Shown: positions 12,708 through 13,264 of the stretch, one piece after another
Numbering within the stretch: the first letter of the stretch is position 1
Layout of the letters: every line of letters begins with the position of its first letter
Assembly (NCBI GenBank): GCA_964625085.1
Contig: CAZVAJ010000006.1
Coordinates: forward strand, 2,812-59,571
DNA length: 56,760 nt
Direction of reading: 5' to 3'
Source: Candidatus Micrarchaeota archaeon
GTDB lineage: Archaea > B1Sed10-29 > JAJSAI01
The notes under the pieces: generated by a model
What the model was told of the DNA's origin: nothing
Database searches by the model: none
What the model saw: the letters and a program-made list of their open reading frames with translations, nothing else
Made by a program: the position numbers and the translations under genes

Positions 12708-13241
12708 TTAGTATTTATATGCCTTTCTAACCAATATTCCTGCCCTTTTCCATACCCTGAGAACATACCAAGCGTAATAATATCCTGCTATCGTGAAAAG
12801 AAGGGTTCCTCTGAACAGCAGGTCATGCACCAAGTCAGCGGTTTTCAGGCCCTGCGCGCTCGCGGACCACAGCACGATCCAGATCCTGACCGGGTTAATT
12901 GCCGCGATGAGCAGGAACCCAAGCAAGGCTCCTATGAGCCTCTCTTTCCTGTTCCTGTCAGGAGTGGCGAGAACAGCCCCCAATAGCACTGCTATCTCAA
13001 CGTTCCCTGCGCACAGGTCGTTTACTTCTGCGTTCAAACCGTCTGCTAAAACCACGGGATTTTCTCCGGGCAGCACCGTGCTTTGGATCCCAAGAGCATT
13101 AAGCAGCGTGCTTGCGCATGATGCAGAGAAGGCTTTTAAAGGGTAAAGGCCTGTTACACTCAGCAATAACCATATGCTGAAAGAGATCAGACCGAGCTTC
13201 AGGACAAATATTACAGCATCCTTTGCGCTTGCGCCAAGCAT
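12708..13241 (-). CDS. archaeosortase/exosortase-family protein (short form)
   Basis: Polytopic membrane protein carrying the three family hallmarks in the canonical order.
- Cys: 'NDLCAGNVEIAVLLGA', a C-[AS]-G motif.
- Arg: 'AINPVRIWIVLW', an N-x-x-R motif.
- His: 'LVHDLLFRG'.

The first ATG is at 13241 ('MLGASAK'). The longest ORF starts at TTG 13259. Confidence 0.6.
   Translation of the reverse strand: MLGASAKDAVIFVLKLGLISFSIWLLLSVTGLYPLKAFSASCASTLLNALGIQSTVLPGENPVVLADGLNAEVNDLCAGNVEIAVLLGAVLATPDRNRKERLIGALLGFLLIAAINPVRIWIVLWSASAQGLKTADLVHDLLFRGTLLFTIAGYYYAWYVLRVWKRAGILVRKAYKY
12712..12719 (-). promoter_or_regulatory. possible TATA box for the giant gene
   Basis: The minus strand reads TATAAATA, inside the last codons of the archaeosortase gene. 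It lies 42 nt upstream of the giant-gene ATG, leaving room for a ~17-20-nt leader carrying GGTGG. Confidence 0.3.
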
Positions 13242-13264
13242 GCAAAGGAAAAGGAGCAAGGAGG

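Follow-up and report, generated by a model that had tools for sequence, protein, structure and literature searches.

The window, by which we mean the whole analyzed stretch of 56,760 nucleotides (nt) from contig CAZVAJ010000006.1 of a Candidatus Micrarchaeota archaeon (assembly GCA_964625085.1), holds a single sortase-type gene, an archaeosortase-family gene located between the gene for a giant surface protein and a divergent pilus operon. Here we describe this gene, the gene module in which it is embedded, and its possible substrates. The features at the center of the locus are the following:

12708..13241, reverse strand: archaeosortase-family gene, 177 amino acids plus stop, assigned from profile matches, residue conservation and an AlphaFold2 model
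4237..12669, reverse strand: giant surface protein of 2,810 amino acids, the next gene after the sortase on the same strand
13242..13273, no strand: head-to-head intergenic spacer of 32 nt, read from the sequence
13274..15547, forward strand: type-IV-filament assembly ATPase (T2SSE/FlaI-TadA-like), assigned by profile match, divergent from the sortase
15531..17597, forward strand: PilC/TadC-like polytopic platform protein of 688 amino acids, assigned from a weak T2SSF match and synteny
17623..20717, forward strand: six pilin-like genes whose N-termini resemble class III signals (MKG/QEF and MKG/QAF, among others)

The sortase open reading frame (ORF) at 12708..13259 on the reverse strand is confirmed in the sequence, and homologues support the ATG at 13241 as its start, giving a 177-residue protein (P0001); the sortases of the two closest loci, L001 and L003, start at the same aligned position. 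Residue numbers count from this ATG, and the numbering of the TTG-start ORF is higher by six. An earlier annotation of the locus, hereafter the sequence-only reading, had quoted three motifs with catalytic-type residues, and all three are present in canonical order: Cys77 in NDLCAGN (codon 13013-13011), Arg119 in NPVRIW (codon 12887-12885) and His139 in VHDLLFRG (codon 12827-12825). Its two intergenic distances are also correct, with 32 nt (13242-13273) between the sortase ATG and the GTG of the divergent ATPase gene at 13274, and 38 nt between the sortase stop codon (12708-12710) and the giant-gene ATG at 12669.

Family assignment and conservation of the active site

The sortase scores 38.7 bits (E=9e-10) against TIGR04178, the curated NCBIfam exosortase/archaeosortase signature with a cut-off of 23, and just passes the gathering score of the Pfam family Exosortase_EpsH (PF09721; 27.1 versus 25.7), where its match spans only model positions 89-249, the catalytic half. 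With both models above cut-off, the archaeosortase-family assignment of the sequence-only reading is borne out. Against models of individual branches, the sortase scores 35.8 bits for XrtX (cut-off 170), 34.0 for ArtD (125), 32.8 for XrtH (86) and 28.7 for ArtB (150); it reaches the cut-off of none of the branches ArtB, ArtD, ArtE, XrtH, XrtX, XrtM, XrtG, pacearchaeosortase and heimdallarchaeosortase, and does not match the ArtA model TIGR04125 at E<=10. By these scores, the sortase is a member of the exosortase/archaeosortase superfamily, and neither ArtA nor any named small branch. Its length, which had been described as minimal, is ordinary: proteins of 150-190 amino acids are normal for several named branches, and because the models for ArtB, ArtD, XrtH, XrtX and pacearchaeosortase are only 150-168 positions long, a protein of about 180 amino acids is not unusual.

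A word-indexed search found only six relatives of the sortase; exhaustive profile searching raised this to 716 cluster representatives at E<=1e-3, of which 191 pass E<=1e-10. Of the best 150 of these 716 representatives, nearly all are 150-230 amino acids long, and NCBI names several relatives [quoted passage not shown]. In 85 relatives at 23-65% identity, six residues (C77, E82, N116, R119, H139 and F143) do not vary, and R144 reaches at least 90% conservation; the Cys/Arg/His pattern is also kept in a 55-sequence set and in every metagenome locus. That Cys, Arg, His, Asn and Glu stay unchanged across this range of identity indicates selection on an active site. All 85 relatives match TIGR04178, yet none approaches a named branch (best E-value 2e-17, to ArtE), and we therefore regard the clade as unnamed.

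We modeled the sortase with AlphaFold2 from 55 sequences, obtaining a mean predicted local distance difference test score (pLDDT) of 94.1 and a predicted template modeling score (pTM) of 0.84. The model contains helices at residues 4-30, 33-49, 80-91, 98-130 and 132-175, with residues 54-72 forming a small sheet, and depicts a catalytic core only: four membrane helices, one helix at the outer face and a small outer beta-sheet. Lys and Arg residues are clustered at the N-terminus, in the 92-99 loop and at the C-terminus. With both termini inside and four transmembrane (TM) helices, the positive-inside rule turns residues 31-79 and 119-144 outward, and would place C77, R119, H139 and R144 on the outer face of the membrane. 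A Foldseek search of the model against the PDB returned nothing at E<0.5, with no solved homologue or comparable fold. Overall, the profiles and the conserved residues point to a genuine, probably active cysteine transpeptidase of an unnamed clade in DPANN-type archaea.

The sortase is part of a conserved pilus and giant-protein module

We collected loci from GTDB genomes, JGI (Joint Genome Institute) metagenomes, a tighter-alignment search and exact-protein look-ups, arriving at about 80 loci with near-duplicates included; synteny counts come from 70 of these, the window among them. Where the sequence continues for 2.5 kb or more downstream of the sortase, 47 of 56 loci have a giant homologue within 6 kb on the sortase strand; where it continues for 3 kb or more upstream, 40 of 48 loci have a pilus ATPase within 6 kb on that side, in divergent orientation in 39. 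The tie of the sortase to the pilus operon and the giant gene holds across the ~80 loci, which makes the sortase a constant member of a conserved ~25-kb module. The window-type module recurs nearly gene for gene in related loci. Its pilus genes, for six pilins, the PilC-like protein and the ATPase, lie on the strand opposite the sortase, and the c26 gene (described below) lies beyond them; on the sortase strand, it comprises the sortase, the giant, a pilin-like protein, two small proteins with four TM helices and about five further small TM proteins. In the window, the genes downstream of the giant are:

3269..4240, reverse strand: pilin-like protein of 323 amino acids with the prepilin-type N-terminus KMKG/FSLFTPLVGT
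2843-3250 and 2493-2846, reverse strand: two small 4-TM proteins
1682-2539, reverse strand: nucleotidyltransferase-domain ORF
45-1618, reverse strand: five small single- or double-TM ORFs

The gene for this pilin-like protein always adjoins the giant gene. The small membrane ORFs (the two 4-TM proteins and about five of 76-131 amino acids), which have no family assignment, recur downstream of the giant in L053-L056, L058, L064-L067 and L071-L073. Peptidase_A24, the prepilin peptidase family, has no match in the ORFs scanned, and such a gene could be located in another part of the genome. A small zinc-ribbon protein (cluster c13; 26592-27158, forward strand; C-terminal CPYC...CPKC) recurs close to the pilin genes of the module in the window and in the Iainarchaeum-type loci L009, L012 and L030.

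Window-type relatives are labeled Candidatus Micrarchaeota and a sister clade is labeled Candidatus Iainarchaeum; the window's own DNA is found in hydrothermal-vent metagenomes. Two more distant loci extend the comparison. In L002, whose sortase is 38% identical, the ATPase is still divergent and toxin-antitoxin genes lie in between, and in L042 (Norongarragalina, Micrarchaeota) the sortase gene begins 4 nt after a PilC-like gene and the giant gene is absent from the contig. The genes around the L002 sortase (2152-4092 and 4830-5471) are HEPN/nucleotidyltransferase-like, DUF4258/DUF2283 and AbiEii genes; these toxin-antitoxin or abortive-infection-type genes occur between ATPase and sortase and also just downstream of the sortase.

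The short distances between genes bear on their expression. An AT-rich box, TATTTTTAA, lies at 13273-13265 on the sortase strand, at about -32 to -24 from the ATG, and the gene has no Shine-Dalgarno (SD) sequence; a box at that distance and the lack of an SD suggest a leaderless sortase transcript. The TATA-like box that the sequence-only reading placed between the two starts is therefore present, but it is only partly conserved, reading TCTTTTTAA in L001 and L003, and it doubles as the spacer after the ribosome-binding site of the ATPase gene, a GGAGG (13260-13264) on the other strand 9 nt before the GTG. Moreover, the start codons of sortase and ATPase overlap in other loci. We rejected a conserved shared promoter on these grounds: the head-to-head layout is conserved, but with a box that varies and starts that overlap elsewhere, a shared promoter element is not demonstrated. 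Co-regulation of the sortase and the pilus operon is plausible. On the other side, a GGTGG 6 nt before the giant's ATG, together with the 38-nt gap, suggests that sortase and giant are co-transcribed.

A secreted protein of the module carries a candidate sorting signal

Archaeosortases act on C-terminal tails, and in the module one protein, c26, carries a tail of the classical tripartite form. The features of this region are:

20714..25201, reverse strand: c26, secreted protein of 1,495 amino acids and candidate cognate substrate, bearing a Sec-type signal peptide and, at the C-terminus, a tripartite tail
20717..20818, reverse strand: candidate sorting signal, the last 34 amino acids of c26, LPSVPEG-NAGIVFVLMIIASLAIA-RELARKRKQG
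25198..26022, reverse strand: second, weaker candidate substrate of 274 amino acids, with a signal peptide and a C-terminal TM helix followed by RRRRR

The c26 protein ends in ...LLSLPSVPEG, followed by NAGIVFVLMIIASLAIA as a membrane helix and by RELARKRKQG. In eight aligned c26 homologues (24-47% identity) LPxxP is invariant, and the usual form of the tail is LPxxP[ED][GNS], a TM helix and basic residues; LPxxP abuts the TM helix directly in 14 loci, and an acidic insert separates them in five. The sequence-only reading had pointed to a "PEG"-TM-basic signal: such a tail is present on a local protein, as the LPSVPEG of c26, but the conserved core is LPxxP and then [ED]. Its further proposal, that the sortase is dedicated to the local surface proteins, narrows in the classical sense to c26, because the giant has no C-terminal motif-TM-basic signal.

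The association between c26 and the sortase holds in both search directions. All 13 window-type loci that extend beyond the last pilin gene encode a c26 homologue, and a reverse search from c26 found eight genomic matches, all in the same module, with the sortase present in all six that reach far enough. Among 769 ORFs from the 70 loci, LPxxP-TM-basic tails occur only in c26 proteins and in one non-homologous protein of 662 amino acids, encoded ~8 kb from the L041 sortase. None of the curated CTERM models (PGF-, PEP-, PEF-, VPEID-, Loki- and GPS-CTERM, and LPXTG) reaches its cut-off on the c26 tails; the best match is to VPEID-CTERM at 15.5 bits versus 33, and most tails have no match. PGF-CTERM likewise has no match on the candidate tails or on the neighboring window proteins tested. 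We regard the c26 tail as a candidate for a new sorting signal and suggest LPxxPE-CTERM as a possible name. The gene for the 274-residue second candidate lies immediately upstream of c26, and the two proteins have no motif in common; a protein of 213-288 amino acids with a signal peptide and a TM-polybasic tail precedes c26 in every case.

Our preferred reading, to which we assign a probability of roughly 0.5, is that the ~25-kb module contains an active archaeosortase that cleaves the tail of c26 as its classical substrate. With its active site facing outward, the sortase would cleave the C-terminal LPSVPEG-TM-RKRK tail and, in the manner of ArtA acting on PGF-CTERM proteins, transfer mature c26 to a lipid of the membrane or to some other nucleophile at the surface. 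After this processing, c26 would be displayed on the surface as a partner of the apparatus formed by pilus and giant adhesin.

Several observations weigh against this reading. The insert that parts LPxxP from the TM helix in five loci is 30-45 residues long and acidic, which is atypical of exosortase-type signals. The c26 tail is overall no better conserved than the body of the protein, and its constrained features are only the LPxxP positions, one Phe and a general TM-plus-basic character. In the Iainarchaeum-type clade, the fetched flanks contain no c26, though sortase, pilus and giant are kept, and in most loci the neighbor of the sortase is the giant, not c26. Finally, we found no RNA runs holding the sortase gene.

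The loci with acidic inserts have a counterpart in the enzyme. In one sublineage (L045, L051, L060, L061 and L068) the sortase carries an insert of ~10-12 residues in its predicted outer beta region, and c26 in that sublineage (L045, L051, L068, L079 and L080) carries the 30-45-residue acidic insert between LPxxP and the TM helix. The paired inserts may reflect co-variation of enzyme and substrate; they probably trace to a single evolutionary event.

The N-terminus of the giant protein and alternative partners

The giants range from 2,000 to 3,000 amino acids across loci. The exterior part of the window's giant comprises CarboxypepD_reg and MG3-like domains and a Cys-rich C-terminus. This protein has a single N-terminal TM helix (~46-70) and lacks any C-terminal anchor or motif-TM-basic signal, and with an N-terminal TM helix only it is not a classical substrate; the C-terminal membrane anchor that had been attributed to it is not present. 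Its N-terminus (window positions 12454-12669, reverse strand) consists of a helical module of ~45 residues, then G-IPSLP and the TM helix. The giants' common pattern here is YxxxE[DE]KW[FY]...D.L...K.IPVY...DP.E.[KRH]G-IP[SA][FL]P followed by the TM helix, with G43 and P45 invariant, and the module is also seen in L009, L013, L031, L039-L041, L043 and L048-L068. AlphaFold2 models it with helices at 3-27 and 33-41, a break at G43-I44-P45 and the TM helix at 46-70 (pLDDT 84-91 for residues 1-60). No Pfam or NCBIfam family covers the module, and a profile search with it returned only ten short contig-end fragments and no full-length giants, a result that is uninformative on its distribution.

Because basic residues precede the TM helix and the huge Cys-rich part with Ig-like domains follows it, the N-terminus of the giant is predicted to be cytoplasmic, which would leave IPSLP and the predicted sortase active site at opposite membrane faces. 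The [KRH]G and the hydrophobic stretch after it resemble the class III sites of the neighboring pilins (MKG/QAF, KMKG/FSLFTPLVG), and given this class III-like site, a reasonable reading of the giant is as a long-leader, pilin-like adhesin. The N-terminal module itself could act as a prepilin-type signal with a long leader, or it could be a new docking domain in the cytoplasm.

These features bear on whether the true partner of the sortase is the giant or the pilus, with the N-terminal G-IPSLP and TM anchor recognized directly, or with the giant or filament serving as covalent acceptor in an archaeal counterpart of sortase-built or sortase-decorated pili. Same-strand adjacency of sortase and giant is the most conserved pairing that we observed, found in both clades, and the link to the pilus persists in the distant L002 and in L042. 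The giant's N-terminal module is highly conserved, with two invariant positions (G43 and P45), and its [IL]PSxP is similar to LPSxP, the form of the c26 tail motif in the window, L001 and L041. Against this, the motif is predicted at the cytoplasmic face and the sortase's Cys, Arg and His outside; IPSLP is kept in the giant, whereas the motif of c26 changes (LPWMP, LPGLP), without co-variation; and the [KRH]G with its hydrophobic stretch better fits a prepilin-type site. We know of no archaeosortase or exosortase that uses an N-terminal signal. Reviews describe motif-TM-basic signals only (PMC9263693, PMC6098224). On balance, we judge a giant or pilus partner unlikely. We also considered the giant's IPSLP to be the same recognition element as the LPSVP of c26 and rejected this as the main explanation, since the topologies disagree and the motifs do not co-vary.

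Alternatively, the enzyme could be a general surface-protein sortase with substrates scattered across the genome, its proximity to the pilus reflecting co-expression of envelope genes. The number of substrates per genome in ArtA-type systems ranges from 1 to 52, and most of these are unlinked (PMC6098224). Iainarchaeum-type loci have no consistent protein with a tripartite tail near the sortase; sporadic large, C-terminally anchored proteins in L008, L027 and L030 have dissimilar sequences before the TM helix. We find this explanation doubtful as well, because the linkage to one pilus type and one giant family in at least two DPANN lineages is far tighter than that of housekeeping sortases, and c26 accompanies the sortase in every informative locus of the window clade. 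It is very improbable that the protein serves the pilus machine as a membrane accessory without catalytic function, or resembles archaeosortases by chance: catalytic activity is a prediction from sequence, the Pfam score is barely over threshold and there is no solved structure to compare, but TIGR04178 is clearly passed, all 85 relatives match it as well, and the Cys, Arg, His, Asn and Glu residues named above do not vary among them.

Other features of the window

Beyond the module, the window contains further filament-type genes, bringing its T2SSE ATPases to three. A T2SSE ATPase at 30167-31849 (reverse strand) carries a 2x[4Fe-4S] ferredoxin domain as an N-terminal fusion, which is unusual for a pilus-type ATPase, and a T2SSF-like membrane protein (28856-29635) adjoins it. 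A second, separate type-IV-pilus-like locus occupies 32239-38595 (reverse strand), with an ATPase at 35624-37549 (PilB3-like C-terminus), two T2SSF proteins at 33532-35627 and four pilin-like ORFs. Judged from ORF size, paralogy and sequence appearance, positions 42503-56661 hold a large sugar-nucleotide/glycosyltransferase-like cluster, including six paralogous ORFs of ~360-375 amino acids and one 12-TM protein; this cluster may serve surface glycan synthesis, which would be relevant to the heavily sequon-bearing giant.

Discussion

To our knowledge, experimental work on archaeosortases is confined to haloarchaea. The enzymes have been described as present in a subset of Euryarchaeota (PMC6098224), and the characterized example, ArtA of Haloferax volcanii, requires Cys173, Arg214 and Arg253 and cuts a signal of three parts, PGF-TM-basic (PMC9263693; PMC6098224). 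Like ArtA, the sortase matches TIGR04178 and Exosortase_EpsH and is polytopic, with conserved Cys and Arg residues at the outer face, a location that is predicted here; cleavage of a motif-TM-basic tail followed by re-anchoring, known for ArtA (PMC9263693, PMC6098224), is here an expectation. ArtA differs in its size of ~300 amino acids versus 177 and in not being linked to a pilus operon. The third tested residue of ArtA is Arg253, whereas in the sortase clade His139 is invariant and Arg144 nearly so within one HDxLFR motif.

The named branches ArtB, ArtD, XrtH, XrtX and pacearchaeosortase are closer to the sortase in size, have the same catalytic core and give its best partial matches, but its scores fall far under their cut-offs of 86-170 bits. 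VPXXXP-CTERM and IPTLxxWG-CTERM are cognate signals of small named branches, and neither is present on the tails that we scanned.

Two kinds of bacterial system offer parallels for a sortase coupled to a filament machine. The C-terminal tags of the rhombosortase/GlyGly-CTERM and MYXO-CTERM systems are functionally coupled to type II secretion, a machine of the type-IV-filament class; these enzymes are unrelated to archaeosortases and their genes do not lie in one filament module, and the coupling to a filament machine described here is genomic only. In Gram-positive class C sortase pili, a cysteine transpeptidase is likewise encoded within the pilus gene cluster, but its fold is unrelated and the pili are covalent polymers of LPXTG pilins, whereas the genes of our module are of the type-IV kind (ATPase, platform protein and pilins with class III signals), with pilins that lack a C-terminal signal. 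We found no description of an association between an archaeosortase, a pilus and a giant protein in the full-text literature searched, which leaves most subscription journals outside. What is new here is the unnamed clade, the unnamed candidate signal and the embedding of the enzyme in a pilus-like/giant-protein module.

We think it quite improbable, if worth stating, that the sortase is itself a working part of the pilus-like apparatus, recognizing the giant's G-IPSLP and TM helix or joining the LPxxPE-tailed protein to the giant or filament. If true, this would make the sortase the first archaeosortase whose substrate is pilus-coupled or not C-terminal, and would be the first case of sortase-type chemistry on a type IV filament; it could underlie host attachment by DPANN archaea.

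Overall, our analysis identifies a distinct sortase clade in metagenome-assembled genomes labeled Micrarchaeota or Iainarchaeum, wired into a pilus and giant-protein module, and yields a testable enzyme-substrate pair in the sortase and the LPxxPE-tailed protein. The pilus-giant apparatus to which this pair belongs could plausibly attach very small, host-dependent cells to their partners.

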